Shown here piece after piece: positions 6,486-64,000 of a DNA stretch of 64,000 bases. The notes beneath the pieces are model-generated. The model searched no databases, was not told the origin of the DNA, and worked only from the letters and a program-made list of their open reading frames with translations. This DNA comes from an uncultured Gammaproteobacteria bacterium (GTDB lineage: Bacteria; Patescibacteriota; Patescibacteriia; UBA9934): assembly GCA_964613815.1 (NCBI GenBank), contig CAZTKG010000003.1, positions 125,440 through 189,439 of the forward strand, given 5' to 3'. The first letter of the stretch is position 1. Each line of letters starts with the position of its first letter. A program made the translations under genes and the position numbers.

Positions 6486-9518
<3,033 letters not shown>

Positions 9519-19146: not shown

Positions 19147-19194
19147 CCATCTCGACCTTGGCGGAGAGATCTCTCCACTGCGGTCGAGATGGGA
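19147..19194. repeat. dispersed nested palindromic repeat, copy 1 (CCATCTCGACC-N5-GGAGAGATCTCTCC-N5-GGTCGAGATGG)
   Basis: Exact 11-bp outer arms and a 14-bp central palindrome, between convergent gatB and miaA. Confidence 0.8.
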
Positions 19195-21701: not shown

Positions 21702-21750
21702 CCATCTCGAGCGAAGTCGAGAGATCTCTCCACTTCGGTCGAGATGGGAA
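21702..21750. repeat. dispersed nested palindromic repeat, copy 2
   Basis: CCATCTCGAGC...GAGAGATCTCTC...GGTCGAGATGG, 14 nt upstream of the thrS start. Confidence 0.8.
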
Positions 21751-23847: not shown

Positions 23848-23893
23848 CCATCTCGACCTTGTGGAGGGATCTCTCCGCAAGGTCGAGATGGGA
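23848..23893. repeat. dispersed nested palindromic repeat, copy 3
   Basis: CCATCTCGACC-ttgtg-GAGGGATCTCTCC-gcaa-GGTCGAGATGG. Confidence 0.8.
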
Positions 23894-32443: not shown

Positions 32444-34837
<2,394 letters not shown>

Positions 34838-45953: not shown

Positions 45954-46562
45954 ATGAAGCACCCGAAAAGTTTTCTTGCTGTCTTTGGTCTTTCTGCGCT
46001 GGCCCTTGTGATTCTTTTGACTCGGCCGGATGCGTCTGATTTGTTTACCATTGATGAGCCTCGGATTGGAGATGACCCGTTTTATGGCGCTGAAGATGCT
46101 GCTCTGACTGTTGTGCTTTTTGGGGACTTTGAGAGTGATGGGACACGCGATGCTGTAGAGTCTTTGCGGGATATTGTGGATGCGAATGACGACATTCGAC
46201 TTGTTTGGAAGGATTTTCCAAATGCTTCGCTGCACCCCGATGCGGTGAAGGCCGCTGTTGCTGCGCAGTGTGCGCATCGTCAGGATGTGTTCTGGGAGTA
46301 CGCAGCGTATCTTTTGGATAATCAGAACGCGTTTGGTGATGATCTTTACTATACGGTCGGTGATACGCTTGAGTTGAGGGCTCGGGCATTTGCGAACTGT
46401 GTTGAAAATGACGAGACCCTTGAGCTTATTGATGAGAGTTACCGAGAGGGGCTTGCGCTAAAGATTCTTAGCACTCCGACGATTTATATTGGCTCCGAGC
46501 GCTTCGCTGGTGAGATGACGGATCGTGATATTGCCTTGTTTATTGACGAACAACGACCATGA
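45954..46562 (+). CDS. DsbA-like thioredoxin-fold protein lacking the CxxC active site
   Basis: Signal peptide and DsbA-like fold pattern, but VVLFGDFESDG replaces the F.C..C motif. Confidence 0.5.
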   Translation: MKHPKSFLAVFGLSALALVILLTRPDASDLFTIDEPRIGDDPFYGAEDAALTVVLFGDFESDGTRDAVESLRDIVDANDDIRLVWKDFPNASLHPDAVKAAVAAQCAHRQDVFWEYAAYLLDNQNAFGDDLYYTVGDTLELRARAFANCVENDETLELIDESYREGLALKILSTPTIYIGSERFAGEMTDRDIALFIDEQRP

Positions 46563-47911
46563 GACTTTTTGCGACGATTGCGATTGGGCTCTTTTTGATG
46601 CCCGCGGTGGCGTTTGGGGCACTTGCTTCTGAGTGTGATGATTCGCCGCTTTGCTCTTGTGATGATTATTCTGTTCCAAATAGTGGTGTTCAGGAGTGCT
46701 GGGATGAGTGTGAAGGCAGCCTTCAGTGCACGATTGATGGAAGTATCACCTCCGTTGAATCAACCGAATGCGACCCAGATGCCGATGAAACGTCTTTTGA
46801 TTGTTATTCCGCAGCGAGTTCTGATGGAGAAGATTCAGAGGCATCGAGCACTACTGAAGAAAAGAAAGATCATGACGCGCCCAGTTTGAGTATCCATATT
46901 CCCGGATTAGACCTCTCCCCTTCCACGGCCAGCGGTTCAAGTATTGAGGTCAATTATATTGGCCAGTATGTTAATGCCCTTTACTCATGGCTGATTGGTG
47001 CCGGCTCACTTATCGCCGTCGTTGTTCTGATGGTTAGCGGTGTACAGTACATGATGGCGCGTGGAAATGCCTCGCTTGTTACCCAGGCGAAGGAACGGAT
47101 GACGAATGCCGTTATTGGGCTCGTGCTGCTCTTGGGAGCCTATGCGATTGCGAACTTCATTGATCCTGCGACGGTGAATTTTGATACGCTTAAGCTTGAC
47201 TCTATTGGTAAGATGCTTGATAAAAGTACTTCTGGAGAAGAGGGAGCTTCAGGCGGAGGGGATCAAACGAAGTGTGATGAGGTCCTCGCCAAGGCCTCGA
47301 CGGAGGGGTCCTGCCCAATTGATAACTTTATGGCGCCAGCGTCTGGCGTGGGACTGTCGTGCAATTACCACTTTAGTGATGCGGATTATAATTACAAGGA
47401 TCAGAAAAGCTTGGACTACCCAGGCATTTGGGGCACCCCCCTTCTCGCCTCGTTTGATGGAGAGGTTGAGTATGTTGAAGGAGGAGGGAGTAACCGCTGC
47501 GGTAATCAGATCAATCTCAAGGGTAGTGGTATCTCTATTATTTACTGTCATGCGAAAAACTTTGTTGATAGTCAAGGTAATATGCGTGAATCTGGAACCA
47601 AGGTTGTTCAGGGCGAAGTCCTTGGACATTTGGGCGGAGTTGCTTGCGGCGGTCAAGCAGATATTCCAAAGCATTGGAAGTATCGCGATAGAATGCTTAA
47701 TGGACCATCTGGCACGGCATGTAAAACGGTTAACTCCCTTGAGACCTGCAGTTGTCAAACTTGGCAACATAGCGGCCATACGACCGGCTCCCATGTTCAT
47801 ATTGAACTGAAATATGGCGGCAATCTCCTTACCTGCGTTGCAAATGGACTAGATACTGCTGAAGCGACAGGTGATACCGGCCAAGCCGCTCCGGTGGAGG
47901 GTGATCATTGA
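46559..47911 (+). CDS. secreted Cys-rich protein with a central hydrophobic hairpin and C-terminal M23 (LytM) peptidase domain
   Basis: Signal peptide, a Cys-rich acidic region, two adjacent hydrophobic helices, and M23 motifs HSGHTTGSHVHIE. Confidence 0.65.
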   Translation: MRLFATIAIGLFLMPAVAFGALASECDDSPLCSCDDYSVPNSGVQECWDECEGSLQCTIDGSITSVESTECDPDADETSFDCYSAASSDGEDSEASSTTEEKKDHDAPSLSIHIPGLDLSPSTASGSSIEVNYIGQYVNALYSWLIGAGSLIAVVVLMVSGVQYMMARGNASLVTQAKERMTNAVIGLVLLLGAYAIANFIDPATVNFDTLKLDSIGKMLDKSTSGEEGASGGGDQTKCDEVLAKASTEGSCPIDNFMAPASGVGLSCNYHFSDADYNYKDQKSLDYPGIWGTPLLASFDGEVEYVEGGGSNRCGNQINLKGSGISIIYCHAKNFVDSQGNMRESGTKVVQGEVLGHLGGVACGGQADIPKHWKYRDRMLNGPSGTACKTVNSLETCSCQTWQHSGHTTGSHVHIELKYGGNLLTCVANGLDTAEATGDTGQAAPVEGDH

Positions 47912-49198: not shown

Positions 49199-49232
49199 AA
49201 AACAACGAGTGATGAGCTCGTTGTTTTTTTAT
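49198..49232. terminator. bidirectional terminator between radA and recG
   Basis: aaaaaacaacgag-tgatg-agctcgttgttttttt. Confidence 0.55.
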
Positions 49233-51301
49233 TCGAAATGGACTTCTTCAATGTATTCTTCGACGCGTTCTGATAATGATGGCCACTTTTTTAGGGTTGG
49301 GTCGTCTGTGAGAATCCATTCTGCATGGTCTTTTGCCTTGTAGAGAAGCTCTCTGTCGGCGTAGGTGCCGAGTTTGAAGGCTTCGAAGCCGGACTGCTCT
49401 GTGCCGAAGATATTTCCTGGGCCGCGGAGTTCTAGGTCCTTGTCTGCGAGCTGGAAGCCATTTTGGCACCCGACAACGGCGATGAGGCGCTTGCGAGCGA
49501 GTTCTGATAGGCGGCCGGATGGATGGAGGTAGCAGTAGCTTTGGTGGTCGCCCCGCCCTACCCTTCCTCGGAGTTGGTGTAGCTGCGCGAGACCGAAGCG
49601 TTCGGCTCCTTCGATGAACATGACGGTGGCGTTTGGGATGTCTACGCCGACCTCTACCACCGTGGTGGAGATGACCATGTCTAGTTCGCCTGAAGAGAAT
49701 TTTTCCATGATCTCGTCTTTTTCCATGGTTTTGAGCTTTCCGTGGAGAATTCCGAGCTTGTATTTTTTGAATGGGCCTTTTTTGAAGATCGTGTAGGTTT
49801 CGGTGACAGATTTTACTCCGAGCGCGTCTGATTCTTCGATGAGGGGGCAGACGACGAAGACTTGGCGGCCGGCGTCCATTTCTTCTTTGATGCGCTTGTG
49901 AGCCTGCGGTTCTTGCCCCTGTTCGACGAGGAAGGTTTCGATTTTCTTGCGGCCTGCAGGGTATTCGTCTAATAGTGATCGGTCTAGGTCGCCGTAGAGG
50001 ACGAGAGCTAGTGATCTCGGGATTGGGGTTGCGGTCATGCTGAGGAGATGGGGGATGCCGTCTTCGTCGCCTTGGCGATCTTTGAGGGCTCGGCGCTGTT
50101 TGACGCCGAAGCGGTGCTGTTCGTCGACGATCATGAGACCTAGGCGGTTGAAGAGGACGCCTTCTGAGAGGAGTGCGTGGGTTCCGATGGCTAGGTCTAT
50201 TTTTCCATCTTTTAGTGCGTCAAGCATTTGTTTTTTGGTGACCTGCTTGCCTTTGATGCGGCGCTTTGTGCGTGTGAATAGGCCTATCGTGAGCATGTCG
50301 CCGAAGATTTTTTGTAAGCCTTTTGCGTGTTGGTCGGCAAGGATTTCTGTTGGGGCGAGGAAGGCGGTTTGCCAGGTTGAAGATGCGGCGTTTACTGCTG
50401 CGAGCGCTGCGACGACGGTCTTCCCTGTTCCAACGTCCCCCTCTAGCAACCTATTCATTGGGGTTTCCTTTTCTAGATCTTGGATGATGGACCAGCTGGA
50501 TCTTTTTTGGGCATCGGTGAGTTCGAATGGAAGAGCCTTTACCGCCTTTGTGACGGCAGGTTTGTTGAATGGGATTTTTGATGATTTTTGCTTTTGGAGC
50601 GCTCGGCGGACGCGGCGGTGGAGGATTTGATGGAGGAAGAACTCGTCGAATTTAAGACGATCTAGGGCGCGTTCCTGCTTTTCTGTTGAGGATGGGAAAT
50701 GCATCTCCTTGATTGCATCGTGGAGGGGCATGAATTCCTCGGACTTGATAATGTCTTGCGGCATCCATTCTTCGACCTCTTCGATGCCTTTTGTCGCCTC
50801 CTCTGCCAGGGCTCGGCGCATTTTTTGGGTGATTGCGCCGGTAAGTTTGTAAACCGGGAGGATTCTACCGGTTTGCTTGACGCTCTGCTGCTTGCCGAGG
50901 ACTTCGTAGATTGGGTTTACGAGCGAAAGGCCGTAGCGGTCGTCTACCTTTCCTGATAGGGACACGATCACGCCTGGTTTTAGGGTTTTTGTGAGGAAGC
51001 CTTGGTGGAACCAGACGGCTTTGATGGAGCCGGTACCGTCTTCGACCATGGCTTGTGTGATGGTCATTCGCGGGTTGTTTTTGGCGCGGCGGTTTTCGAT
51101 AGTTGCGATCGCGCCTTGGATCGTAATGCGCTCCCCTGCTGATACGCTGCTGATTTCTGTCTTTTTTGAGAGATCGTCGTAACGGAATGGGAAATCTAAT
51201 AAGGCATCTCTTAGGGAGACGATGCCTAGGCGCGCGAAATCTTTGGCGCGGGCGGCGCCGATTCCTTTTGCTCTTTGGATGTTTTTGTCGAGAAGAGGCA
51301 T
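49229..51301 (-). CDS. recG: ATP-dependent DNA helicase RecG
   Basis: Wedge domain, DEAD-box helicase motifs (GDVGTGKT, DEQHRFG) and a TRG motif. Confidence 0.95.
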   Translation of the reverse strand: MPLLDKNIQRAKGIGAARAKDFARLGIVSLRDALLDFPFRYDDLSKKTEISSVSAGERITIQGAIATIENRRAKNNPRMTITQAMVEDGTGSIKAVWFHQGFLTKTLKPGVIVSLSGKVDDRYGLSLVNPIYEVLGKQQSVKQTGRILPVYKLTGAITQKMRRALAEEATKGIEEVEEWMPQDIIKSEEFMPLHDAIKEMHFPSSTEKQERALDRLKFDEFFLHQILHRRVRRALQKQKSSKIPFNKPAVTKAVKALPFELTDAQKRSSWSIIQDLEKETPMNRLLEGDVGTGKTVVAALAAVNAASSTWQTAFLAPTEILADQHAKGLQKIFGDMLTIGLFTRTKRRIKGKQVTKKQMLDALKDGKIDLAIGTHALLSEGVLFNRLGLMIVDEQHRFGVKQRRALKDRQGDEDGIPHLLSMTATPIPRSLALVLYGDLDRSLLDEYPAGRKKIETFLVEQGQEPQAHKRIKEEMDAGRQVFVVCPLIEESDALGVKSVTETYTIFKKGPFKKYKLGILHGKLKTMEKDEIMEKFSSGELDMVISTTVVEVGVDIPNATVMFIEGAERFGLAQLHQLRGRVGRGDHQSYCYLHPSGRLSELARKRLIAVVGCQNGFQLADKDLELRGPGNIFGTEQSGFEAFKLGTYADRELLYKAKDHAEWILTDDPTLKKWPSLSERVEEYIEEVHFE

Positions 51302-51352
51302 TTGATTTAGTATTTTATCTCAGTTTTTGCGAAAAACCAAGCTTGTATTGCT

Positions 51353-51400
51353 CTATCTCGACCGAAATGAGGAGATCTCTCCACGTTGGTCGAGATGGGA
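51353..51400. repeat. dispersed nested palindromic repeat, copy 5
   Basis: tATCTCGACC-gaaatga-GGAGATCTCTCC-acgtt-GGTCGAGATGG. Confidence 0.75.
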
Positions 51401-51427
51401 GCAGATTTTATCCCCACTTTATCCACG

Positions 51428-51545
51428 CTATAAACACCTTTATTCACGGGGTTGTTCACAGATTTGTGGAAAAGTTATACACATTTTGTTCACGTTGACA
51501 TCCGGTTTTTTATTTACGTGTTCAAAAAGCTTAATGATTTGCCCG
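51428..51545. promoter_or_regulatory. cluster of six DnaA-box-like 9-mers followed by an AT-rich tract (candidate oriC or DnaA-regulated promoter)
   Basis: TTATCCACG, TTATTCACG, TTGTTCACA, TTTTCCACA (reverse), TTATACACA and TTGTTCACG within 76 bp, each 7-8/9 to TTATCCACA, followed by an AT-rich segment. Confidence 0.45.
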
Positions 51546-51556
51546 GTTGACTCTGT

Positions 51557-52204
51557 GTGGCTTATTTGATAATCCTGATTGGTGACCCTGGAGGCACTTT
51601 GTTCTTTTTTTTGACGATGCTTCTCCTGTCTCTCGGCGGCGCGGTTGCCGAGACTAGTCAGGCTGTGCAGGATGCCACCACCTTCTCGCCTGAGCCACAT
51701 GTTCGCCTTATTCTGCACGGGACGCGAGCCCCTGTGGAAGGTGGCGCTGTCGGACTTTCGGGCTGGGTGATCGCTCCCGACATTGGCAATGATCCGACCA
51801 AATGGGTGACGCTTGCAGGCCTACGGGTTGTGAATGATGTCTTGAGCCTTGAGTTCCATGGTGGACTCTTGAAGGCTGGCGACGGCACCGCCCACCTTCT
51901 GGACGTTCGCTTTGGCGCAGCGCCCAAGAACAGCCGGCTTTCGCACTGGAGCAATGTTCAGCTGATCATGGATCCGAGCGGCGAAGGCGGTGGCGGACTC
52001 TACTTCTACCATCAGTACGATCTGTCGATCTGGCTTGTCGCTATTGGGCTGGAGAACGAAAATCTCTTTACACGTGAAGCTGCGGGGATTGCGACAGGGC
52101 CCCACCTCGTGATTCCGCTTGGGAGCCTTACGATCGTCATGGCGCTCCAGTTTGACATGGCTCATGCCGAATACTTCTGGACCCGCGCTGTCCTGAACCT
52201 CTGA
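51557..52204 (+). CDS. hypothetical secreted protein (moderately high GC)
   Basis: Hydrophobic N-terminus, ORF only. Confidence 0.4.
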   Translation: MAYLIILIGDPGGTLFFFLTMLLLSLGGAVAETSQAVQDATTFSPEPHVRLILHGTRAPVEGGAVGLSGWVIAPDIGNDPTKWVTLAGLRVVNDVLSLEFHGGLLKAGDGTAHLLDVRFGAAPKNSRLSHWSNVQLIMDPSGEGGGGLYFYHQYDLSIWLVAIGLENENLFTREAAGIATGPHLVIPLGSLTIVMALQFDMAHAEYFWTRAVLNL

Positions 52205-52228
52205 CCCCCTCCTGGGGTTGTTTATGGC

Positions 52229-53074
52229 TCAAGTAAAGGACTTGGAACAAGTTAGCGCGTTTGCGAGGTAATAATGCCGAGACTCAAAGAGTCTCGGCAT
52301 GTTTTGTCTTGCCTCAAGCTCTCTCACGAGGTGCGGGAGCCAGTAGGCTCTCACCTGCTGGTACGTGCGACGTATGAAACGTTTAAGGACAGACCAAATA
52401 GCTTCAATGTGGTTTGTAGGGCCAAACTCAAATTTAGAGTGGATACAGACTTCATGCTTGTAGTTAAAGAACTCATGGATGCGGTTGTAACCGCTCCATC
52501 CGTCTGTGTAGACGGTGGAACCGGTCTTCACATGCTTAAGAAGAAATCTATCTGTCGTATCTTGCTCTCTGTTATCTGTGACAAAGAGGGCGACTCTCTT
52601 TGTCCCGCGTTCATACGCACCAATGACAATGCGCTGGTTACCGCTTCTCCTTCTTCCGACAAAAGCTTCGTCTACTTCTACATCCCCAGAAAGAATCTGG
52701 AGGTGTTCGTACGGAAGATGGTACTGGAACCTTCGGTACTATCTTCTGGCTGTCGGCACACTCACTCTTGCGAGTTCGCAAGCAGCGGGCAGAGCCCGCT
52801 GCTTCTGCCAGCAGTAGAGAAGGATCCAAAACTGTGTTCATGAGAGCTTCATTCCACTAAGCCATGAGACCGACGTGAGACTAAACGGCTTCCTGCAACT
52901 CGGACACCGGAATCTGCACTCACTTCTGCGAATATTAGATGAATTGCAGCGAGGACAGCGGATGCGCTGTCCAAACACTACTTTTCTGACAAAAGCCTTG
53001 ATCTTTCTTTCATTTGGAACCTCGTTTAGAATGGACATACGGAACAGTTGGTTATTTGTTAGCTGCACTAACAT
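52229..53074 (-). mobile_element. IS1595-family (ISXO2-like) transposase gene remnant with an internal deletion / frame break
   Basis: The N-terminal zinc ribbon (CPRCNSSN...CPSCRKPFSLTS) is in one frame. The DDE / C-terminal region (VEVDEAF...TDGWSGY...TNHIEAIWSVLKR) is in another, and only ~100 nt lie between them where ~300 are expected. Confidence 0.7.
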
Positions 53075-53181
53075 TGTAACCTCTGTTCCATTTCGATTAT
53101 ACGAGCCTGTTTATTTTGGATTGACAATCTGTGTAGTTCTGATATTGTTCGCTCCTGATCGATCTTTTTCTGGAGAAAATC

Positions 53182-53622
53182 TTGCCTGCACCCCGCTCCC
53201 CGTTCCCTGATCCGAATGTGTTTACTGCCCGTCGTGGCTTTGTGAGGATCTTTGGGTTCTCTGCCTGGATTGAGGATGGGCACTGGGTCCTTTCGCATCG
53301 CTCTGGGCACACCTCTACCTCCTCCCCTACTCCGGTTCACGAGCAGATTCAGGCTTCTATTGAGGAGGACATCTCTCGTGGTCGTGGAGATGATGTCTGT
53401 GCGGTTCACGTCTCGCCCGCTACGGCTGCTCGGCTGATTCTTGAGGGAGCGATCCCCGAGACTTCGCTTGCCGCAGCTGATACGCAACGACGTGCTGGAC
53501 GTGTCCTGATTCCGGATGTGACATTTGGGACGTCGCTTCGAGTGATGCGGCTTCCGGTGGTGGTTCGGCGAGGATACATTCACGTGTTCGCGACCGTGGA
53601 TGCGCGGGAGATTATTGTGTAG
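53182..53622 (+). CDS. hypothetical protein
   Basis: ORF in a high-GC region. Weak support. Confidence 0.25.
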   Translation: MPAPRSPFPDPNVFTARRGFVRIFGFSAWIEDGHWVLSHRSGHTSTSSPTPVHEQIQASIEEDISRGRGDDVCAVHVSPATAARLILEGAIPETSLAAADTQRRAGRVLIPDVTFGTSLRVMRLPVVVRRGYIHVFATVDAREIIV

Positions 53623-53654
53623 CGTGCGCTGGCTGATGCTGGCGCTTTTTTGTT

Positions 53655-53696
53655 TGGGAAAAAGAAAGACCCCGCGCTTGGCAGGCGCGGGGCCTG
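53655..53696 (-). terminator. rho-independent terminator after the acidic lipoprotein gene
   Basis: Minus strand GGCCCCGCGCC-tgccaa-GCGCGGGGTC followed by TTTCTTTTT. Confidence 0.45.
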
Positions 53697-53733
53697 ACCG
53701 AAGGCGGAGTAGGAGACTCCCTCGATCTGATCT

Positions 53734-54427
53734 ACTGTTCCAGGTGGACGATTCGCGTGACGTCGGAGCTGTTGATCCCATTGTAGGCGATGCTCGGGTC
53801 GGCGTCGCTCTCGAATGCGGGATCCTCCAGGGCGTACAGCGAGGCCTGGATGCCCACCCTCTCCTCGGTTCCGTAGAACGCACAGGAGAGAACGAAGGAT
53901 GTCGCGCTGGCGACCTCGTGGTCGAAGAAGACGAGGTCGGCCTGGATGTCTGCCGCGATGTCGACCGGAACGATGTCGACGGAGGAGTCTCCCCCGCCCT
54001 GGATCTCGTAGAGCTCGCACCAGTGGAGGTACTCGTCCGCGTTGAAGTCGCTGTCGGACTCGACCTAGTAGACGATGCCACTTGCGGAGAATCCATCCTC
54101 CTCGGTCGTGATGGCGTCGGCGGTGAGTCGCGCTTCGTCACCAGCTCCGTAGGAGATGGTGTCCAGGACGGACTGCGGGGTCATGTAGGCTTCGACCGGG
54201 ATGACGTCGACGGGGATGACGTCTCCGGTCTCGATGATCTCCTCCATCGTGTCGCCGTCCGTGTCCTCGGAGCAGAGGTCCGGGAACTCGGCGCAGAAGT
54301 CGTCGGCAGGAGGGGTGAGGTCGGAGATCGTGGCCTCGTCTGCGGTATCGGTCTCGACGTCGGTTGGGGCGAAGCGGCAGGCGGTGAGGGTGAGGAAGGT
54401 GATGATTGCGGGGAAACGGGTGGTCAT
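53734..54427 (-). pseudogene. high-GC acidic lipoprotein gene interrupted by an in-frame TAG at 54065-54067
   Basis: Lipobox LTLTAC after a signal peptide. The reading frame continues unbroken after the amber codon (...SGIVY*VESDSDFNADEY...) to a stop at 53734. TAG is a normal stop elsewhere in the window (rpmE, gyrB). Confidence 0.55.
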
Positions 54428-54478
54428 TTGACGCTCCGTGAGGGTTTTTGAAGGAAACAGTCGTTTGACTGATGCGCG

Positions 54479-54510
54479 CATGATAGCAGAAAAATGCCTT
54501 TTTGTCAATC
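54479..54510 (-). promoter_or_regulatory. conserved promoter block (TTGACAAAAAGGCATTTTTCTGCTATCAT)
   Basis: -35 TTGACA, 17-nt spacer, -10 TATCAT, about 50 nt upstream of the lipoprotein start. Confidence 0.5.
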
Positions 54511-54570
54511 AAAATGTCTTTAAAAAGCTGTTTTTATTAGGTTTTTCTGGTTATTTTTGTTCAAAAGTAC

Positions 54571-54604
54571 TTGACAAAACTTGGTTTTTGTGCTATTGTA
54601 TAGC
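54571..54604 (+). promoter_or_regulatory. conserved promoter block, plus-strand copy (TTGACAAAACTTGGTTTTTGTGCTATTGT), divergent from the previous one
   Basis: Same block architecture, driving 54669..55061. Confidence 0.45.
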
Positions 54605-54668
54605 TATTCTTTCACACCATTCTATTCGCTTTTTAGCGAAGGAGTCCCTCAAGAATCCCTCCATTGGC

Positions 54669-55061
54669 ATGCGTATCATGCGCTACTTCGAGATCATGAT
54701 GATGCTGAGCGCTGTCACCGCAGCTCTCCTCGCCTTCGGTCCTGTGATCGAAGACGCTGAGAACACGCAGCGCGCACTGCATCAGCAGCGTGCGGAGCGG
54801 CGCGTGATCGATGAAGTCGCCATCAAGGCAGCTACCGAGTCAATCGCTACCTTCTCACGCTACTACAGCGCCTGCGAGTTCGAGGCCCTGCAGAACCAGC
54901 TGGTCGCTGTTAGCGGCGGTCGGCAGGTTACGCAACACAGCATCAAACTCATGCGGAATGCGGCACACAGTGCTCGTCTCGCTGGCGCACCTGCTAATAT
55001 CGTAGCCCTGCACCTCGACCGTGCCGGACAGCTTCACCGCTTCGCCTCCAGCCACCACTAA
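54669..55061 (+). CDS. hypothetical secreted protein (high-GC)
   Basis: Signal-peptide-like MRIMRYFEIMMMLSAVTAALLAFG. The start was moved to the internal Met. Confidence 0.4.
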   Translation: MRIMRYFEIMMMLSAVTAALLAFGPVIEDAENTQRALHQQRAERRVIDEVAIKAATESIATFSRYYSACEFEALQNQLVAVSGGRQVTQHSIKLMRNAAHSARLAGAPANIVALHLDRAGQLHRFASSHH

Positions 55062-55090
55062 CCACAAACATCAACGCATGGTACGCGAAG

Positions 55091-55396
55091 ATGCGTACCG
55101 GCGTCGTTCGAACCACTCTGCAGCGTCAGCTCCCCCACCTCACCAAGGAGTTCGAGATGGAGGTGCGCTCCGCCCTCCTTCCCGGACTCGCCGGTGATCA
55201 GAAGGCGGCGTTCTCCCGCGTTCGCCGGCTCGGCAACGACCCGGGTCGCCAGCTCGAGAACGCCAACGTTCTCGTCCGGATGGCGGCTCAGTCGGAAGAT
55301 GCCGACATGGAGCTGCTGACCGACATCGACACGCGTCGACGACGGCTCGTGCGTCTGGTTCGCCTGGCCGATGCCGGGCACCTGATCTGGCAGTAG
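55091..55396 (+). CDS. hypothetical protein (high-GC)
   Basis: ORF only. Confidence 0.25.
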   Translation: MRTGVVRTTLQRQLPHLTKEFEMEVRSALLPGLAGDQKAAFSRVRRLGNDPGRQLENANVLVRMAAQSEDADMELLTDIDTRRRRLVRLVRLADAGHLIWQ

Positions 55397-55412
55397 CCCT
55401 CGCCCTCGCCTC

Positions 55413-55450
55413 ACGGCGCAGCTTCACCGCTGCGCCGTTTTCTTTTTATT
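55413..55450. terminator. bidirectional terminator
   Basis: ggcgcagc-ttcacc-gctgcgcc followed by gttttcttttt. Confidence 0.45.
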
Positions 55451-55895
55451 CTGGCGCGTAAACTCCTATGAGCTCAGCTTTTTTGATGATTGCCCCCTCC
55501 ATTGCCTCTTCTACCTCTTTTTTTGATGCTCCCTCAGGGAGATCAAGCATTTTACTCAGTGCGTAGAGCTTGAAAAAATATCTATGTTCACGGTCGGGCG
55601 GCTTTGGGCCGGAGTAGTCCAGATACCCGCGCGTTCCCTTCCCTTTTACGCCCTCGACTTCCCAGTTTTCTGGGATGGATGTGATGTGCGGCGGGATGTT
55701 GAATACGGTCCAGTGATCCCAAACGTCTACCGGGGCGTATTCTGGGACGTCGGGGTCGTCTACGATGAGGGCTAGCGATATCGTGCCCTCTGGAATGTTT
55801 GTGATTTCTAGCGGCGGGCTGATGTCTTCTGCGAATTGGGTGTATTTTCTTGGGATTGTTTGACCTTGGTTGAATACCGGAGATGTAATTTGCAT
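55446..55895 (-). CDS. YbhB/YbcL-family phosphatidylethanolamine-binding protein (PEBP)
   Basis: DPDVP..AP...HW and HRYFFKLYAL motifs of bacterial PEBPs. The start was moved to MQITS. Confidence 0.75.
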   Translation of the reverse strand: MQITSPVFNQGQTIPRKYTQFAEDISPPLEITNIPEGTISLALIVDDPDVPEYAPVDVWDHWTVFNIPPHITSIPENWEVEGVKGKGTRGYLDYSGPKPPDREHRYFFKLYALSKMLDLPEGASKKEVEEAMEGAIIKKAELIGVYAPE

Positions 55896-55906
55896 AAAAT
55901 GTCTTA

Positions 55907-55937
55907 AAATCCCCCGCCCTTTCAGGCGGGGGATTTG
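55907..55937. terminator. rho-independent terminator
   Basis: aaaatcccccgcc-ctttca-ggcgggggattt. Confidence 0.5.
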
Positions 55938-55957
55938 TGAATGGATTTTGGTTCTAT

Positions 55958-56275
55958 TTATTTTTTCACCCCTCTCTTTCGCTTTTGCGTGAAGTAGTAG
56001 ACAAGCGCAGCGGGTCCGGAGAGGAAGATGATGAGCGCGATCCACATTCCCTTTTCTTTTTCTTGGTTTTGGATGGCGTCTATGAGCATCCAGAGCCAGA
56101 AGGCTACGAGCGCGAGCCCGATAAGGACTCCGAGGATCGGGATGATGACGAGCCAGCCGGGGACATCTGGGCATGGGACTTCTTCGCCGTTTACTCTGCA
56201 GGTTGCGGCGAGAGCGAACTTGGAGCTTGCCAGGAAGAGCGCGAGGGATGTGAGGGAGGTTTTTAAGGTGTTCAT
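55958..56275 (-). CDS. small membrane protein with PLDc_N-like C-terminal segment
   Basis: Signal peptide plus a WMLIDAI...KGMWIALIIFLSGPAALVYYF motif. Confidence 0.45.
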   Translation of the reverse strand: MNTLKTSLTSLALFLASSKFALAATCRVNGEEVPCPDVPGWLVIIPILGVLIGLALVAFWLWMLIDAIQNQEKEKGMWIALIIFLSGPAALVYYFTQKRKRGVKK

Positions 56276-56370
56276 GGTACGTGGTTAAAAATTGGTTTTA
56301 TTTTAGCATTTTTCGTGCCTTTGTTCGAATCCCCTTTCCATGCAAAAAGACTCCACGAGTGGAGTCTTTT

Positions 56371-56460
<90 letters not shown>

Positions 56461-56502
56461 GTGTTTGATTTTCAATACCCCCTTAGCTCGGATGGCGCCG
56501 GA

Positions 56503-56600
56503 AAAATGCTCTGTAATCGGTTTTCTGAGAGCAGCGCAGTAAGGCGTATAGACAATACGTCGTCGAGCAGCGCAGCAGAAAAACGATTACAGAGTATTTT
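56503..56600. repeat. long imperfect inverted repeat (25-nt arms) in the tRNA-Arg/tRNA-Ser spacer
   Basis: AAAATGCTCTGTAATCGGTTTTCTG ... CAGAAAAACGATTACAGAGTATTTT (2 mismatches), with the inner direct repeat gagcagcgcag x2. Confidence 0.7.
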
Positions 56601-56613
56601 ACCAAGCCAGCCG

Positions 56614-57912: not shown

Positions 57913-58557
57913 TCAATCTTTTCCTTGCGCTAGGGTGTATATTTTGATGTTTTCTTGGCCGTTTGTTGCCAAGGTTTGCATGGCAGCCCTTGTGGTTGCG
58001 CCGGTTGTGAAGACGTCGTCTATGAGGAGTATTCCCGACTCTTCTGCGAGCTCTTTTATGTATTTGAATGGTGAGCTTCTCATTGCCTCAACCCTTCCCT
58101 TCTCTGTTTGCTCCGTTTGTCTCTGTGTACTTCTTTTTCTTGAAAGCGCGTGTCTGACGGGAATCTTTGTGTGTTCTGATAAGAATGAAGCGAGTTCTTG
58201 TGCTTGATCGAAGCCTCTTTCTGCCTTTCTGGCGAAATGTAGTGGAATTGGGATGAGCGCGCTGACCCTGTGGACCTCTATGTAATGCTCTAGCCAACTC
58301 AGGTTTGGGATGAGCTTTTTTTGGAGGATGTGCCAAGCTGATTCATCGAAATGGTATTTCCAGGCTTTGATGAGGTCTCTTGCAATTGGGTCTGCGTAAG
58401 AAAACGAGGCGACGGCGCCGGAGTCTGATTGAATGAAGGAATTTTGTAAGATCCAGGATTGTTCGCAGGAAGCGCACAGGAGCGCACCTTCGGCTTTGCA
58501 GGCGACGCAAAAACGCGGGAAGACCGCGTTTTTTAGGTTTTCGATGAATGCTTTCAT
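57913..58557 (-). CDS. comFC: ComF-family phosphoribosyltransferase (competence protein ComFC)
   Basis: N-terminal C4 zinc finger (CVACK...CASC) and a PRTase motif LLIDDVFTTGAT. Confidence 0.75.
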   Translation of the reverse strand: MKAFIENLKNAVFPRFCVACKAEGALLCASCEQSWILQNSFIQSDSGAVASFSYADPIARDLIKAWKYHFDESAWHILQKKLIPNLSWLEHYIEVHRVSALIPIPLHFARKAERGFDQAQELASFLSEHTKIPVRHALSRKRSTQRQTEQTEKGRVEAMRSSPFKYIKELAEESGILLIDDVFTTGATTRAAMQTLATNGQENIKIYTLAQGKD

Positions 58558-58560
58558 GGT

Positions 58561-59112
58561 CTACTCCCAGGTGAAGTCGTCTACGAGCCAGGAATTGCCT
58601 GATTTGATGAGTGAGAGTGTTAGTTTTTGTGTTGTTGTTGTTGAGTTTGCAGGGGATCCGATAGATTCTGTGCGTTGGGTTTGGATTTCTACGACGGATA
58701 CCTCCTCTGTTTCTGACGTGGTTTCCATGGATAGGACGCGGGTGGACATCCCCTGGTATTCGTCGGATGCGGATGCCTGCGCTGAGGCTGCGATGGACTC
58801 TAGGCGGTCTTTGAGTGCCTCTGTTGCGATGGACATGACGTCTGTGACGTTTGCGAAGTCTCCTTGGCTTGAGTAGCTTCCAAAGCGCTCTGCGAAGGTT
58901 CTGGCGATGGTTTGGGCAGCGATATCGACAGGTTCTTTCGTGATTTCTGGGATTTCTGCTGGCTCGCCGGTGATTTCTGTTTCTACAGGCTGAGATGGAA
59001 CCGGCTCTTCGATGATTTGTGGCTCTGGGCGGAGGAGAAGCCAAATGATAATGACGAGCGCGATGAGAATCGCGATCGCGATGAGCATTTCTTTTTTGTG
59101 TCTGGATTCCAT
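58561..59112 (-). CDS. membrane-anchored hypothetical protein adjacent to VirB4 (possible VirB8/PrgL-like)
   Basis: N-terminal TM helix, acidic linker and an ~110-aa globular C-terminal domain. The family assignment is a guess. Confidence 0.45.
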   Translation of the reverse strand: MESRHKKEMLIAIAILIALVIIIWLLLRPEPQIIEEPVPSQPVETEITGEPAEIPEITKEPVDIAAQTIARTFAERFGSYSSQGDFANVTDVMSIATEALKDRLESIAASAQASASDEYQGMSTRVLSMETTSETEEVSVVEIQTQRTESIGSPANSTTTTQKLTLSLIKSGNSWLVDDFTWE

Positions 59113-59145
59113 ACGCGACGCGCAGGGCGCGGTTAATGCTGAAGA

Positions 59146-61191
59146 TTAGCTCGGCGTTTGTGAGGTCGGGGCCTCGCTGGCGGCGGGAGGTTGTCCGTTT
59201 TCCGGTGGAGCTGTGTCGGGGATTGGTTCTGGGATTTCCGGTTGCGCTGGTTCTGATGGTTGCTGTGCTTCCTGCGCCTCCTTTTCTGCGAGAGATTCTT
59301 CGAATTCTTTTCTTGCTCGCTCGATTTCTAAGAGCTGTTCTGGATTTGTGGTGATGAGTTGATCTTCTGCGTAGCTGGCGATGACTTTAACGGCCGCGTG
59401 ACGCTTTCCGGCGAAGAAGATCCCTTCCCCCACAGATGCATCGATGAGGAGGTAGCGCTCTGACTGCGTGAGGTTGAATGTTTTTGCGATCGCGTCTACG
59501 CCTGCGGTGGACTGCTTCATGAGGAGCTGCATGGCGGAGTTTGTCACGATTGCGTGACCGTATTGGTTGCGCAGGAAGTCGTTTACGTCCTGTGTGATCG
59601 TTGTGACGCCTAGGTAATATTTGCGGGCACGTTTTACGAGGCCGAAGATGAATTTGGATGCGTCTTCGTGCTGCATGAGCCACCAAGCCTCGTCGATTGC
59701 TAGGAGGCGTTTTTTGCGCTCTGAGCGGACGACGTTCCAGATGTAGTTGACGATAGAGTAAATAGCCATTGGGCGGAGCTCATCTTCTAGATCTCGTACG
59801 GAGTAGACAACGAGCTGGTTGTCCATTTTGACTGTGGTTGGGTAGTTGAGGAATCCTGCGAATGTTCCTTCGGTGAATTTTTGGAGTCTTGAGACGAGAT
59901 CCCCTGTTTCTTCCATACCTTCTAAAACCTCTTGCAGGTCTTGCATGACCGGGTATTCTGCTGATGCTAAGTCTTTTGCTGAGAGGTCTGGAGTGATGTC
60001 TTTTTTGGCGTAAGCTTCGATAATGGCTCGGTCTAGAGTGGAATCTTCTTTTGGCGTGAAGCCGTTTTTACCCCCCTCTCCGACTGGTTGGCCGATCATG
60101 ATACGGAGAAGACCCTTTAGTGTAATGATCGCGCTTCGGAGGATGTCTTCTGTTGAGGTGTCTTCCCCCATTGGTCGTGGGAGGTCGAAGGGGTTGATCT
60201 TGCTCTCTGACCCGAGAGAGACGTTGACGAATGTGCCTCCGACCGCGTCTGAGAGGGTGCGATACTCCATTTCTGGGTCAATGACGATGACCTCTACGCC
60301 CATCATCATGGAGCGCAGGATTTCTAGCTTGATCGCGTAGGACTTTCCTGCACCAGACGTCGCGAAAACGACTGCGTTTGCGTTTGCGAGGGAGAACCGG
60401 TCAAAGATGATGAGGGAGTTGTTGTGGCGGTTTATCCCGTAGAGAATCCCTTTGTCGCTCGTGAGGTCAGATGAGATGAATGGGAATGACGACGCGATTG
60501 GCGACGTGTTCATGTTGAACGAGATCATGAGCTCGTCGTTTCCGATTGGCATGGTGGAGTTGAAGCCCTGCTCTGCCTGGTAGAAGCCGCGTTTTGTAAA
60601 AATGAGACGGGAACCGAAAACGGATTCCATTTCTTCTGTCCGTTTTCCTAGCTCTTCTTCTGAATCTGCGTAAATTGTTACGTAAAATGCGAATTGGAAA
60701 AAGTGCTCCGTTCCTTGCGTGAGGTCGTCTCGTAGCTGCTCCATGTCTCGAAGGGCGGTTTCTTGGATTGGGTCTCTTGGAGCGCCTTTTTCGTTGTCGC
60801 TGACGATTTGCGCCTCTGCGATACCTACCTTGTTCTTGAGCTGCTTGAGAATGACGGCTGCTTTTACTGGGTAAAAGAACATGCCGATGTCGATGGTTCC
60901 GTTGTAGTTGATGATTGGGGCGCCCCATCCTACCCCTACGTATCGTGGGTATGTCGTCACAAATAGTGTGCGGACGTATTTTGATCCGAGTCGGAGGAAG
61001 TCTGGGTTTACCTGGAATGCTGCCGGCGCAATGAGGTCACGTATGGTAACGGTTCCAATTCTATACGTGCGCTCGTCTTCGAGCGTTGCTTGGTCGGCGA
61101 TCTTTTTCTCCTCTTCTTCAGACGTCTTCTTTGGCGGAGGAGCTTTTTTGGCCTTTTTTTCTTTTTGTAGTTTGTGAATGTCGATCGACAT
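59146..61191 (-). CDS. type IV secretion system ATPase, VirB4/TrbE/CagE family
   Basis: Walker A FATSGAGKSY and Walker B RLLAIDEAWWLM (the DEAW motif of VirB4). Length and domain order are typical, with a Glu/Pro/Gln-rich C-terminal tail. Confidence 0.85.
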   Translation of the reverse strand: MSIDIHKLQKEKKAKKAPPPKKTSEEEEKKIADQATLEDERTYRIGTVTIRDLIAPAAFQVNPDFLRLGSKYVRTLFVTTYPRYVGVGWGAPIINYNGTIDIGMFFYPVKAAVILKQLKNKVGIAEAQIVSDNEKGAPRDPIQETALRDMEQLRDDLTQGTEHFFQFAFYVTIYADSEEELGKRTEEMESVFGSRLIFTKRGFYQAEQGFNSTMPIGNDELMISFNMNTSPIASSFPFISSDLTSDKGILYGINRHNNSLIIFDRFSLANANAVVFATSGAGKSYAIKLEILRSMMMGVEVIVIDPEMEYRTLSDAVGGTFVNVSLGSESKINPFDLPRPMGEDTSTEDILRSAIITLKGLLRIMIGQPVGEGGKNGFTPKEDSTLDRAIIEAYAKKDITPDLSAKDLASAEYPVMQDLQEVLEGMEETGDLVSRLQKFTEGTFAGFLNYPTTVKMDNQLVVYSVRDLEDELRPMAIYSIVNYIWNVVRSERKKRLLAIDEAWWLMQHEDASKFIFGLVKRARKYYLGVTTITQDVNDFLRNQYGHAIVTNSAMQLLMKQSTAGVDAIAKTFNLTQSERYLLIDASVGEGIFFAGKRHAAVKVIASYAEDQLITTNPEQLLEIERARKEFEESLAEKEAQEAQQPSEPAQPEIPEPIPDTAPPENGQPPAASEAPTSQTPS

Positions 61192-61194
61192 AGG

Positions 61195-61905
61195 CTAGAA
61201 TCCTTCTTCAATGCGTAATTCGCTTACGTCGTTTAGTTTTTGACGATCGAATGTGTGCGGGTTGTACACTGTGTAATACAGCTCAATGAGCCCCTGCGTG
61301 TCTAGGATAGCGTTTTTTAGGCCCATTCCAGTAAGTCCACCTTGTACAATGGAAACGCGTTGCATAAGAGACTTTCGGCGGTCTTGGAACTTCTTTTCTG
61401 AGAGCTTTACGACCGATGCCGGCATGATCGCCTCTGAGAGACGTGTCATGAATCCAATCTTCTTGTCTGTCGCTGCATCGAACGGGACGACGACAAAGAA
61501 GCGCTTTTGCATGATTTCGCCAAGGTCTACGAGCTCGTTAATGAACGAGCGATAGTCTTTGATTTGCGCCCTCAGGAGCTCATTTGTCATCTTTGCCTCT
61601 TGCTCGTTTAGACTTTGAATGTAGCTGTCAATGTTCATCTTTCGTGACTGGATCACGATTTGGATTGGGTATTCTAGGCCGTTCAAAAACTGCATGTAGG
61701 ATTGGATCATGGCCTGCTGCTCGTCTACGGATTTGAGCGCGAAATTGACGCTTGAAACCATGATAACCGCTCGGAGTGTCCCATCTTTTAAGACGACTGC
61801 ATCTTCTCGAATCTCTGCGATGTCCAAAAATCGCTGAGTTGGTGGGCCAACCTTTGATTTTGCCAACTTTTTGGACTGCATTTCTTTTTTCTTTTTGTCG
61901 GCCAT
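61195..61905 (-). CDS. type IV secretion-associated protein resembling the VirB4 N-terminal (membrane-proximal) domain
   Basis: LDIAEIREDAVVLKDGTLRAVIMV parallels IRDLIAPAAFQVNPDFLRLGSKYVRTLFV at the N-terminus of the adjacent VirB4. Confidence 0.45.
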   Translation of the reverse strand: MADKKKKEMQSKKLAKSKVGPPTQRFLDIAEIREDAVVLKDGTLRAVIMVSSVNFALKSVDEQQAMIQSYMQFLNGLEYPIQIVIQSRKMNIDSYIQSLNEQEAKMTNELLRAQIKDYRSFINELVDLGEIMQKRFFVVVPFDAATDKKIGFMTRLSEAIMPASVVKLSEKKFQDRRKSLMQRVSIVQGGLTGMGLKNAILDTQGLIELYYTVYNPHTFDRQKLNDVSELRIEEGF

Positions 61906-61906
61906 A

Positions 61907-62347
61907 TTATTTGTGATCTTCTGGGTTGTAGATTCCGCCGGTGTTTACCACAAGTGAGAGCTCTGAGAGTCTTGATTTTGGGACCTTCCTCTTTGTCGGG
62001 GGCGGGATTTCTTTTTCTTTTTTCTCTTTTTTTAGCCTTGCCTTGATTTGCCCCGTTGTGAGTGCCTTGTCCCACACGCGCACCATTGGACGCCTGAACG
62101 TTAGTACCATGTTGAGAACGATGAAATGAAATGGCTGCCCATTTACTTTTACGAATGCAAATACGATTCCTATCGCAAGGACAGGTAGGCCGACCGCGAG
62201 CAAGGCAAATATGTTGAGGATTAGCTTGTAGAGAAGCGCCTCGACAAGAACAACGCCAATCATGATGAGGAACTGCCTCATGGTGACTGGGCCGATGATC
62301 TTTGTTTCTACGTCGAGAAATTGTGGTACGACAAATTGATCTGGCAT
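61907..62347 (-). CDS. PrgI / VirB3-like small membrane protein
   Basis: VPQFLDVETKIIGPVTMRQFLIMIG followed by two TM helices. Position immediately upstream of VirB4, as in Gram-positive-type T4SS. Confidence 0.5.
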   Translation of the reverse strand: MPDQFVVPQFLDVETKIIGPVTMRQFLIMIGVVLVEALLYKLILNIFALLAVGLPVLAIGIVFAFVKVNGQPFHFIVLNMVLTFRRPMVRVWDKALTTGQIKARLKKEKKEKEIPPPTKRKVPKSRLSELSLVVNTGGIYNPEDHK

Positions 62348-62370
62348 ATTTCTTCCCTTGCATTATAGCA

Positions 62371-64000
62371 CTATGCAAGCTGAATACGTTTGTTGAGCTC
62401 TACGATGGCACGCACCTCTGCGGGACTGAGACTTTCCTCGCCTTTTGCGCGGCGGCTAGATGCGACTTCGGAGACCGATCTTCCTTGCACGAGCGCTGCC
62501 TTGGTCATGCGCACATATAGGCGATTTATTGGACTTTTTCGCCATGCAAGTACCGCCTTTACTCTGTCTTCGTATCCCTGCTCTTCGATGAGATCTAGCT
62601 TGTCTTCTATCTTTTGTATTGCCTCCATTGGATCGCTTGAGAGTCTACGGAACTGCTTTGGGGTCATGGTACCAACTTCCTCTGTTGGACCCATGAGCTT
62701 TGGGGTTGCGACGACGTCGGCGATCCTGCCCTTCTTTTGCGGTGGGGCGCTCTGGTTGCTAAGTCGTGCTTTTGCTTTTTTGGGCTTTTCTGGTGTTTTG
62801 GCGTGAACGATAAACTCTGGCTCGAGCTTGTTGTGATGAAGCTCTAGCTCTTCTTCGTGCGATCTTGCCGCACTGACTCGACCGATTGGATGTATGCTGT
62901 TGATTTTTTCTTTTGAAGCTGCGCCGGTGAGCTTGGCGTGACGCGCGTTTATAACGACACGTTCTTTCTGGGCTGTAGTCGATGTTTTCTGTGTCTTTTT
63001 TGGGATTTTTTTGTATGCCGCCTCCACTGCTTGGCGTGCCTGTTTTGCTGCTGACGTGAGTTCTAACACTTGATCTTGCGCGACTTTGTAGCGAGACTCG
63101 AACAGTGCCCGCAGTTGACGCTCGGATCTTCGGCCGCGGATATGGGAGGCGAGGAGGTCTTTTGCTGCTGGAATTGGGATTTTGTATTTTCTGAGCGTTG
63201 TTCTGACCCCGCTTAGCGCACGATCGGTACAGACGTCGATCACCTTTGTGTATTGGTCATTTTTTGTCTTTTTTGCTGCTGATGCGTGCGCCTTTAGCTC
63301 TTCGTGCTCGTGGTCGTGCAAAAGATTGCCAGCGATTACTGGCGTCGTGGTGGAAAGCGCTGTTTCGGTGTGTGGGACGATGGCAGTTGAGCGGAGAGGC
63401 GGTTGCTTTTTTGCGGGCCCAGCCACGGGGCTTGGAGCAGGTTTTTGCTTTTCCTGCTTGATCTTGGGAGCGATTACCCTCGTTGCTTTTTTGATGACTT
63501 TTTTCGGCTTTGGCTCTGGTGGGAGTGGTGGGAGTGGTCTGATCGCTCCAGCGCGTCTTTTGACTACTGATGTCTTTGCTTGTTTTGCCGGTTTTGATTT
63601 TGGCGCTGGCTCTGATGGTTTCTTGATCTTCTTTTTTTCCTGTGGCTGAGCGGGGGCGTTTAGCTTTTGTTGCTTAGGTGTTCTTGCCGCTGTTGAGCTA
63701 GATGTTTTCTGCTCTTCTTTTCGGACTTTCGGAGCAGGCTTCTTTGGCTTTTGAGGCTCTTGCTCCTGTGCCGATACCTTCGCCGGGTCGAATCGCGTTG
63801 CTTTGATTTTTTCTATTGCTGATAGGTCGATCTTTTCTTCCAGCTCTTTGATGAGCTTTTGCGACTGCGCTTCGTCTAATCCTAGCCCTCCTACCATGAG
63901 TGGGCGCTCCATGAGAGTTATCGTTGCCTCTTTTGCTCTCTTTTTTTCGAGATAGCCCTTTGCAATGTAGACAAAGCGCTTTGTGAGGCGTTCTGGGAGA
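62371..64000 (-). CDS. Lys/Pro-rich low-complexity protein, 5' end beyond window
   Basis: The frame stays open upstream of the annotated Met to the window edge (...LPERLTKRFVYIAKGYLEKKRAKEATITLMERP...). Long basic PK-rich region. Confidence 0.45.
   Translation of the reverse strand, partial: LPERLTKRFVYIAKGYLEKKRAKEATITLMERPLMVGGLGLDEAQSQKLIKELEEKIDLSAIEKIKATRFDPAKVSAQEQEPQKPKKPAPKVRKEEQKTSSSTAARTPKQQKLNAPAQPQEKKKIKKPSEPAPKSKPAKQAKTSVVKRRAGAIRPLPPLPPEPKPKKVIKKATRVIAPKIKQEKQKPAPSPVAGPAKKQPPLRSTAIVPHTETALSTTTPVIAGNLLHDHEHEELKAHASAAKKTKNDQYTKVIDVCTDRALSGVRTTLRKYKIPIPAAKDLLASHIRGRRSERQLRALFESRYKVAQDQVLELTSAAKQARQAVEAAYKKIPKKTQKTSTTAQKERVVINARHAKLTGAASKEKINSIHPIGRVSAARSHEEELELHHNKLEPEFIVHAKTPEKPKKAKARLSNQSAPPQKKGRIADVVATPKLMGPTEEVGTMTPKQFRRLSSDPMEAIQKIEDKLDLIEEQGYEDRVKAVLAWRKSPINRLYVRMTKAALVQGRSVSEVASSRRAKGEESLSPAEVRAIVELNKRIQLA

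Follow-up and report, generated by a model that had tools for sequence, protein, structure and literature searches.

Organization of the recG upstream region

We describe here an array of DnaA-box-like sequences that lies upstream of recG in a 64-kb stretch of chromosomal DNA from an uncultured Candidatus Uhrbacteria (Patescibacteria/CPR) bacterium, referred to throughout as the window. The window carries chromosomal genes (gyrB, secE-nusG-rplKA, dnaE, thrS, pheST, gatB, thyA, clpB, radA, recG, and a T4SS-like cluster), and the closest relatives of its RecG protein, at 62–71% identity, belong to metagenome-assembled genomes (MAGs) labelled Candidatus Uhrbacteria or Patescibacteria. Several samples have yielded contigs, the longest of 199 kb, that carry 100% identical sequence, and the six contigs recovered are all 100% identical over the region. 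The array occupies a 255-bp intergenic region, with recG on the minus strand to one side and ORF 51557-52204 on the plus strand to the other, and it adjoins a palindromic repeat and overlaps a predicted promoter; an insertion sequence (IS) lies beyond the ORF. The features are as follows.

49229..51301, minus strand: recG, 690 aa, read leftwards from the intergenic region
51302..56370: lineage-specific variable segment of ~5 kb, from recG to tRNA-Ser(tga), absent in relatives and of near-zero skew
51354..51397: copy of a palindromic repeat, CATCTCGACC-N5-GGAGAGA/TCTCTCC-N5-GGTCGAGATG, between the recG start codon and the array
51405..51434, minus strand: predicted sigma-70-type recG promoter (TTTATA, 18-nt spacer, TAAAAT), overlaid in spacer and -10 by boxes 1 and 2
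51408..51416, plus strand: DnaA box 1, TTATCCCCA, 8/9, overlapping the -10 of the predicted recG promoter
51419..51427, plus strand: DnaA box 2, TTATCCACG, 8/9, inside the spacer of the predicted recG promoter
51440..51448, plus strand: DnaA box 3, TTATTCACG, 7/9
51452..51460, plus strand: DnaA box 4, TTGTTCACA, 7/9, head-to-head with box 5
51465..51473, minus strand: DnaA box 5, TTTTCCACA, 8/9, exact TTWTNCACA, the sole reversed box
51475..51483, plus strand: DnaA box 6, TTATACACA, 8/9, exact TTWTNCACA
51486..51494, plus strand: DnaA box 7, TTGTTCACG, 6/9, weak, in phase with box 6
51506..51541: short AT-rich tract, 78% AT (80% AT over 51506-51535)
51510..51518, plus strand: doubtful eighth site, TTATTTACG, 6/9, within the AT-rich tract
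51557..52204, plus strand: ORFan of 215 aa (GTG start) or 195 aa (ATG start at 51617), with a hydrophobic, signal-peptide-like N-terminus
52226..53107, minus strand: decayed IS1595-family IS, 882 bp, with 24-nt imperfect terminal inverted repeats

The array consists of seven DnaA-box-like 9-mers in 87 bp, with its first base at 51408. Six of the seven boxes are on the plus strand and one is reversed, and the plus-strand boxes follow one another at start-to-start distances of 11, 21, 12, 23, and 11 bp, a period of ~11 bp, with gaps of two bases between 9-mers. This two-base-gap geometry is that of cooperative DnaA arrays, for example the low-affinity arrays of E. coli. The original prediction listed six 9-mers, and all six are present and span 76 bp as it claimed. 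The match of 7–8 of 9 positions that it gave for each holds for five of them, but TTGTTCACG matches at only six. It also began the feature at 51428, which falls after the first of the boxes that it listed; the array starts ~20 bp further left with box 1 (TTATCCCCA at 51408, 8/9), which was absent from its list. The description of the boxes as being in mixed orientation is right insofar as one box is reversed, but is overstated for an array with all other boxes on one strand.

The box cluster exceeds chance expectation

The box cluster is real and far beyond chance. Only ten sites in the 64-kb window match the DnaA box consensus with at most one mismatch, and four of these sit within 76 bp; none of 5000 dinucleotide shuffles of the intergenic region reached four such sites, the mean being 0.08. 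If two mismatches are permitted, six sites are observed against a mean of 0.95, and again 0 of 5000 intergenic shuffles reach six, while simulations of the whole window gave at most five such sites per 120 bp compared with the six observed. The strict consensus TTWTNCACA occurs twice in the array and only four times in the whole 64 kb. The 80 Patescibacteria loci used for comparison (1.21 Mb) contain no 120-bp stretch with four or more sites at the one-mismatch threshold and one stretch with three. No DnaA-box cluster as dense as the array occurs elsewhere in the 81 kb of this genome that we covered, or in the 1.21 Mb of related DNA.

The sole other three-box cluster (at most one mismatch) in the 1.21 Mb of Patescibacteria loci is at positions 4044-4137 of L028, a locus of a Saccharibacteria-labelled MAG, where it lies in an AT-rich intergenic region of 540 bp, flanked by a UPF0102 gene on one side and a gene for a CCA-adding enzyme on the other, with dnaA not adjacent. 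Within our window, three one-mismatch boxes on the minus strand are spread over 600 bp of the gyrB coding sequence (7676-8290) with no change in skew, and are probably there by chance. A second weak cluster near 67.5 kb, outside the window, is composed of two-mismatch sites only and was also judged to be a chance occurrence.

We have considered whether the sites might bind some other protein, or form a repeat of no relevance to DnaA, with a motif (TTnTnCAC) that merely resembles DnaA boxes. The strict consensus is exact in two sites only, the consensus applied is the near-universal one and may not be that of the CPR hosts themselves, and further lineage-specific repeat families occur in the genome, one being directly adjacent to the array. 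However, four of the boxes match the near-universal consensus at 8/9 positions, and the T-CAC core, the 9-mer length, and the ~11 bp spacing are exactly the traits of a DnaA array. Moreover, the motif does not recur in the rest of the window, the single-stranded folding of the array is unremarkable (z = -0.05), and an Rfam search of the intergenic region gave no match. We therefore regard a reading in which DnaA plays no part as improbable.

Three-box arrays are common away from dnaA, going by the metagenome matches listed. A metagenome scan with the three-box sub-pattern TTATCCNCANNTTATCCACN{10,14}TTATNCAC, which was aimed at a donor or a paralogous oriC, gave at least 120 matching stretches from unrelated organisms, and no relatives were among the matches listed. 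The 117 ORFs that flank 80 arrays among these listed matches include five DnaN and three DnaA, the others including NusA (7), UDG (5), DnaD-like, DnaB_2, integrases, and a microvirus scaffold protein; this tally is a rough figure, as many of the loci are short.

Strand composition argues against a chromosomal replication origin

The presence of the cluster and of an AT-rich segment beside it had led to the proposal that this is an oriC unlinked to dnaA, at which DnaA would oligomerise on the boxes and open the AT tract. There are two points in its favor. No denser box cluster is present in the 81 kb or in 1.21 Mb of related DNA, and because no cluster of four or more sites occurs anywhere in that Patescibacteria DNA, the prior for an origin is not small. 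In addition, the forward boxes face a CCGG spacer and then a T-/AT-rich tract, which is the polarity of R1 towards the DUE in E. coli. By strand composition, however, the array is not the chromosome's replication origin, and we consider it extremely unlikely that it acts as one: there is no change in skew at the site, the AT tract is ordinary, and the array is absent in 19 relatives with the same gene order.

The original prediction named GC skew as a check, and for this we used the window and its flanks, an 81-kb stretch assembled from overlapping contigs. There is neither a sign change nor a cumulative minimum at 51.4 kb or anywhere else in the 81 kb. Between -9.2 kb and +71.9 kb the plus-strand GC skew is above zero in almost all 2-kb windows, the exceptions being two isolated windows (-0.002 and -0.116), and the cumulative skew climbs almost monotonically over the whole 81 kb. 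Per-gene third-position (GC3) skew was used to separate the effects of replication from those of the coding strand. To the left of the site, plus-strand GC3 skew is +0.36 for plus-strand genes and +0.41 for minus-strand genes, and in recG, immediately left of the array, it is +0.52; beyond the variable segment, on the right, minus-strand genes have +0.24, with individual genes at +0.32 to +0.50. Because the sign is the same on either side, whatever the strand of the gene, both flanks belong to one replichore, in which the plus strand is the G- and T-rich leading strand. In complete CPR genomes the origin is normally marked by a classical inflection of the skew (Chen et al. 2020, PMC7111523), and skew is thus a valid criterion in this group.

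The strength of the skew is unusual, with GC3 skew of up to 0.8, and most of the predicted genes in the 81 kb, by count, are on the apparent lagging strand, including dnaE, thrS, and pheST.

The gene content of the region is likewise not that of an origin. The absence of dnaA and dnaN from the window, noted in the original prediction, is confirmed by motif, tblastn, and Pfam searches, and extends to the 81-kb stretch; no DnaA was found in a search of the 80 Patescibacteria loci together with the 81-kb extension. No origin-indicator genes lie near the array, its neighbors being recG, radA, the ORFan, and tRNA genes. Both dnaA and oriC would be situated over 9 kb to the left of the window.

The AT-rich segment described as following the boxes is real (51506-51541), and its place downstream of the forward boxes is the one expected of an unwinding element. 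It is not exceptional, however, and 26 other regions of the window match or exceed its instability when 30-bp segments are compared, and 69 with segments of 40 bp. In E. coli oriC, R1 is oriented towards the DUE, and E. coli oriC supplied the strand polarity that we used in testing for trios. The published rule for the basal unwinding system (BUS) of bacterial oriC, made up of DnaA boxes and DnaA-trios, consists of a box with at most two mismatches, a spacer of 0–16 nt, and at least three NAN trios (Pelliciari et al. 2021, PMC8287927). The array resembles a BUS in that tandem co-oriented boxes are followed by a short CCGG spacer and then by a T-run, in which three NAN trios could be seen on the complementary strand. 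It differs in that 22 nt separate box 6, the nearest box with at most two mismatches, from the first possible trio run (the T-tract from 51506), as compared to the maximum of 16 nt, and the array would qualify only with box 7, a 6/9 match, as the anchor. Furthermore, the trios number the minimum of three and are a mere T-tract, and the array has no skew inflection, dnaA/dnaN, or conservation to accompany them. That the site is missing from relatives of the same gene order and lies within what appears to be recently acquired DNA, as set out below, also argues against a chromosomal origin.

Comparison with relatives and the segment adjoining recG

The recG neighborhood is well conserved among relatives of this bacterium. 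The 19 Uhrbacteria loci share the order of T4SS-like genes, tRNA-Ser, a 170-aa gene, tRNA-Arg, recG, radA, and on to clpB and lemA, with a tRNA-Ser-tga following tRNA-Arg in some of them, and in the closest relatives recG starts 80–150 bp past a tRNA gene. The 500 bp upstream of recG contain at most one box (at most one mismatch) in each of the 19 relatives, and no cluster of three or more boxes was found anywhere in these loci. These comparisons show the array to be a recent local acquisition or invention and not a conserved control element, which also follows from its position at the edge of a ~5-kb segment present in this lineage only. The cluster itself is lineage-specific and, to judge from the segment beside it, at the edge of recently acquired or fast-turnover DNA.

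The 80 loci contain no homologue of any ORF in the segment, and Pfam and PHROG searches with all of these ORFs matched only the IS1595 fragments, a PBP-family protein (which also matches a PHROG family of unknown function), and, weakly, PLDc_N, the latter in a small membrane protein. The ORFan at 51557-52204 retrieved only itself from 5.8 billion proteins and has no family match, and a single-sequence AlphaFold prediction (pLDDT 33) gave no confident structure. The transposase of the IS1595 element is split among three minus-strand frames (52838-53074, 52638-52841, and 52229-52531), and a copy that is 79% identical on an unrelated contig, JGI Ga0373648_0073665, confirms the boundary at 53107, the left one. 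A plus-strand ORF at 52274-52843, antisense to the transposase, is probably spurious.

Further along the segment, 53068-54508 is G+C-rich with long overlapping ORFs on both strands and low-complexity translations, and is probably a frameshifted or decaying gene; the minus-strand ORF 54065-54508 has a lipoprotein-like N-terminus and a native-like GC3 skew. Beyond the segment, the spacer between tRNA-Arg(gcg) and tRNA-Ser(tga) (56461-56613, minus strand) contains a long hairpin with 28-nt arms that are 89% complementary (RNA z = -4.0), for which there is no Rfam match. The T4SS-like cluster at 57913-63912 and beyond (L090/L091) includes PrgI-like, TraC-like, VirB4/TraG-type ATPase, and M23 peptidase genes together with large unannotated proteins, and it adjoins the tRNA-recG block in the Uhrbacteria relatives too. 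A second pilin/M23 gene is at 46559-47911.

One interpretation of this setting is that a DnaA-dependent origin of plasmid or phage type was brought in with the ~5-kb segment, the array being either the origin of a mobile element that is integrated or was once autonomous, or a secondary origin of recent date. The succession of boxes, AT tract, and gene is like the layout of plasmid ori-rep regions; the segment is compositionally foreign, adjoins tRNA genes, and carries an IS; and among the metagenome matches listed, three-box arrays are often away from dnaA/dnaN and sometimes beside phage-type genes (DnaB_2, integrase, microvirus scaffold protein). However, we found no Rep, integrase, or other mobile-element replication gene in the segment, and the ORF that would take the place of rep, downstream of the array, is an ORFan that has a signal-peptide-like N-terminus and for which no confident fold was obtained. 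There are no repeat families and no iterons in the segment other than the boxes, an att-type direct repeat of the tRNA-Ser 3' end, sought as a sign of classical integration, was not found, and searches against 72,556 plasmids and 50,697 phages gave no match. We consider this interpretation very unlikely.

A second interpretation is that the array is a functionless relic that came in with foreign DNA, such as a piece of an origin or DnaA-regulated region from another replicon, with no selected role. Its position at the edge of a segment missing from all relatives is consistent with this, as are the decayed IS1595 and the ORFan that the segment carries, and the near-zero GC and GC3 skew of the segment within a very strongly skewed genome, to which the intergenic region conforms with 49 G and 50 C. 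The recovered contigs, being 100% identical, also offer no evidence of purifying selection. However, seven sites in helical phase, four of them at 8/9, argue against a long period of neutral decay, and no donor sequence is present in the plasmid or phage collections. Moreover, an intact array would bind DnaA regardless, so that a relic differs from the explanation we prefer, a DnaA-box cluster that regulates or titrates, in its effect on fitness alone. A relic is a possibility to which we give some weight, although we think it unlikely.

Relatives also differ from this genome in the sign of GC3 skew. In all 12 Uhrbacteria relatives examined, the recG-sense strand is G-rich at third codon positions in most gene groups, with a GC3 skew of about 0 to +0.3, while here that strand is strongly C-rich, with a GC3 skew of -0.4 to -0.5. 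The opposite sign indicates that the conserved gene block is replicated in the reverse direction in this genome, the cause of which would be either a large inversion or a shift of the origin or terminus. In a more distant relative (MAG MFD01476.bin.2.188, recG locus L079) the skew passes from +0.09 upstream of recG to -0.10 downstream, which is a terminus-type switch near recG.

A more speculative proposal is that the array, with its co-oriented boxes, G+C spacer, and T-rich tract, is a horizontally acquired module of origin type. It would now serve either as an ectopic or secondary site of initiation that is still young, or as a selfish 'sponge' for DnaA by which initiation in the host is perturbed. 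In that case we would be seeing a CPR chromosome in the course of gaining an origin, in a genome where the conserved block already replicates in the direction opposite to that of the 12 relatives examined. We regard this as highly improbable.

Predicted binding of DnaA and regulation of recG

We propose that the array is a non-origin DnaA-box cluster similar in kind to the DBCs of Bacillus, acting as a DnaA-regulated promoter or a titration site, and on balance, by analogy with known systems, we think this somewhat probable. For the DBCs of B. subtilis, DnaA binding and phenotype are experimentally established, the effective ones are origin-proximal (Okumura et al. 2012, PMC3245932), and the roles proposed are transcriptional control of neighboring genes and restraint of initiation (PMC3245932). 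Extra-origin clusters of this type have multiple boxes in a non-origin intergenic region, and occupy positions that differ between relatives beside the genes they regulate. The array has the first of these properties, and in respect of the second it is absent in relatives and overlaps the predicted recG promoter. The B. subtilis DBCs (PMC3245932) are similarly composed of several boxes, are intergenic and away from oriC beside genes that they could regulate, and vary in position between related species. They differ from the array in that DnaA binding to the latter is predicted, and in that the array lies in apparently recently acquired DNA of a CPR bacterium.

Two other systems offer comparisons. 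The oriCII of Pseudomonas aeruginosa, upstream of gidA, is also an origin-looking DnaA-box cluster (PMC13438810), and the role documented for it is DnaA-dependent transcriptional control of the adjacent operon (PMC13438810). It adjoins the classical origin-linked gidAB-parAB genes, however, whereas the array adjoins recG and an ORFan. The datA and DARS1/DARS2 loci of E. coli resemble the array in being non-origin box clusters, and they modulate the DnaA pool or its nucleotide state (PMC3245932); datA and DARS2 differ in their dependence on IHF/Fis sites and specific box geometries.

The array also has a property that a purely regulatory site would not need, which is that the forward boxes face an AT/T-rich tract with origin-like polarity.

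An indication of a regulatory role is the overlap with the predicted recG promoter, which is the only sigma-70-like promoter predicted in the intergenic region. The call is a 9/12 match to the consensus, from a scan that found one such promoter compared to 0.5 expected in shuffled sequence. By eye, a possible ORFan promoter of weaker quality (TTGACT-15-GATAAT, 51547-51573) can be recognized downstream of the array. The original prediction offered as a fallback that the array is a site of DnaA titration or a DnaA-regulated promoter for ORF 51557-52204; the fallback survives, but it is the predicted recG promoter that is most clearly overlapped, and not that of the ORF. Because the insertion parted recG from the upstream tRNA context that it has in relatives, recG is probably transcribed from this new predicted promoter.

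A plausible model for the array can be assembled from these elements. From the near-universal box consensus we infer that DnaA binds to it, and with phased, co-oriented boxes the binding would be cooperative, giving a short oligomer on double-stranded DNA. As the predicted recG promoter is overlaid by boxes 1 and 2 in its spacer and -10, DnaA so bound would occlude the promoter and repress recG. The array would also sequester some of the free DnaA, by analogy with the extra-origin clusters of B. subtilis and E. coli. Hda/RIDA-type control is, to our knowledge, not known in CPR bacteria. Reasoning from these analogies, we conclude that DnaA probably represses recG and is buffered at the array.

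In E. coli, RecG helicase suppresses origin-independent replication. If DnaA does control recG here, initiation would be tied to this helicase, which is a modest regulatory curiosity. Of broader consequence is that a dense DnaA-box cluster alone is insufficient for calling an origin in metagenome-assembled CPR genomes: the best cluster in 81 kb sits in apparently newly acquired DNA inside one replichore, which calls for caution in predicting origins from MAGs. In our literature search, no paper mentioned DnaA boxes together with Patescibacteria, and the array provides a natural substrate of ~100 bp for testing the DNA binding of a CPR DnaA protein.

An interspersed palindromic repeat in the recG leader

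The repeat at 51354-51397 folds within the recG leader into a hairpin of very high stability (z = -5.6). It is one copy of an interspersed palindrome of ~48 nt with the pattern cCCATCTCGACC-N5-GGAGAGA/TCTCTCC-N5-GGTCGAGATGGg, which is genome-specific and mostly intergenic. Copies in the window are at 19148-19191, 21703-21746, 23849-23891, 34231-34253, and 51354-51397, and there is another at about 67.6-67.75 kb in L091. The half-pattern has 10 matches compared to 0.29 expected, and no copy of the repeat was found in the 80 related loci. The repeat looks REP-like or terminator-like.
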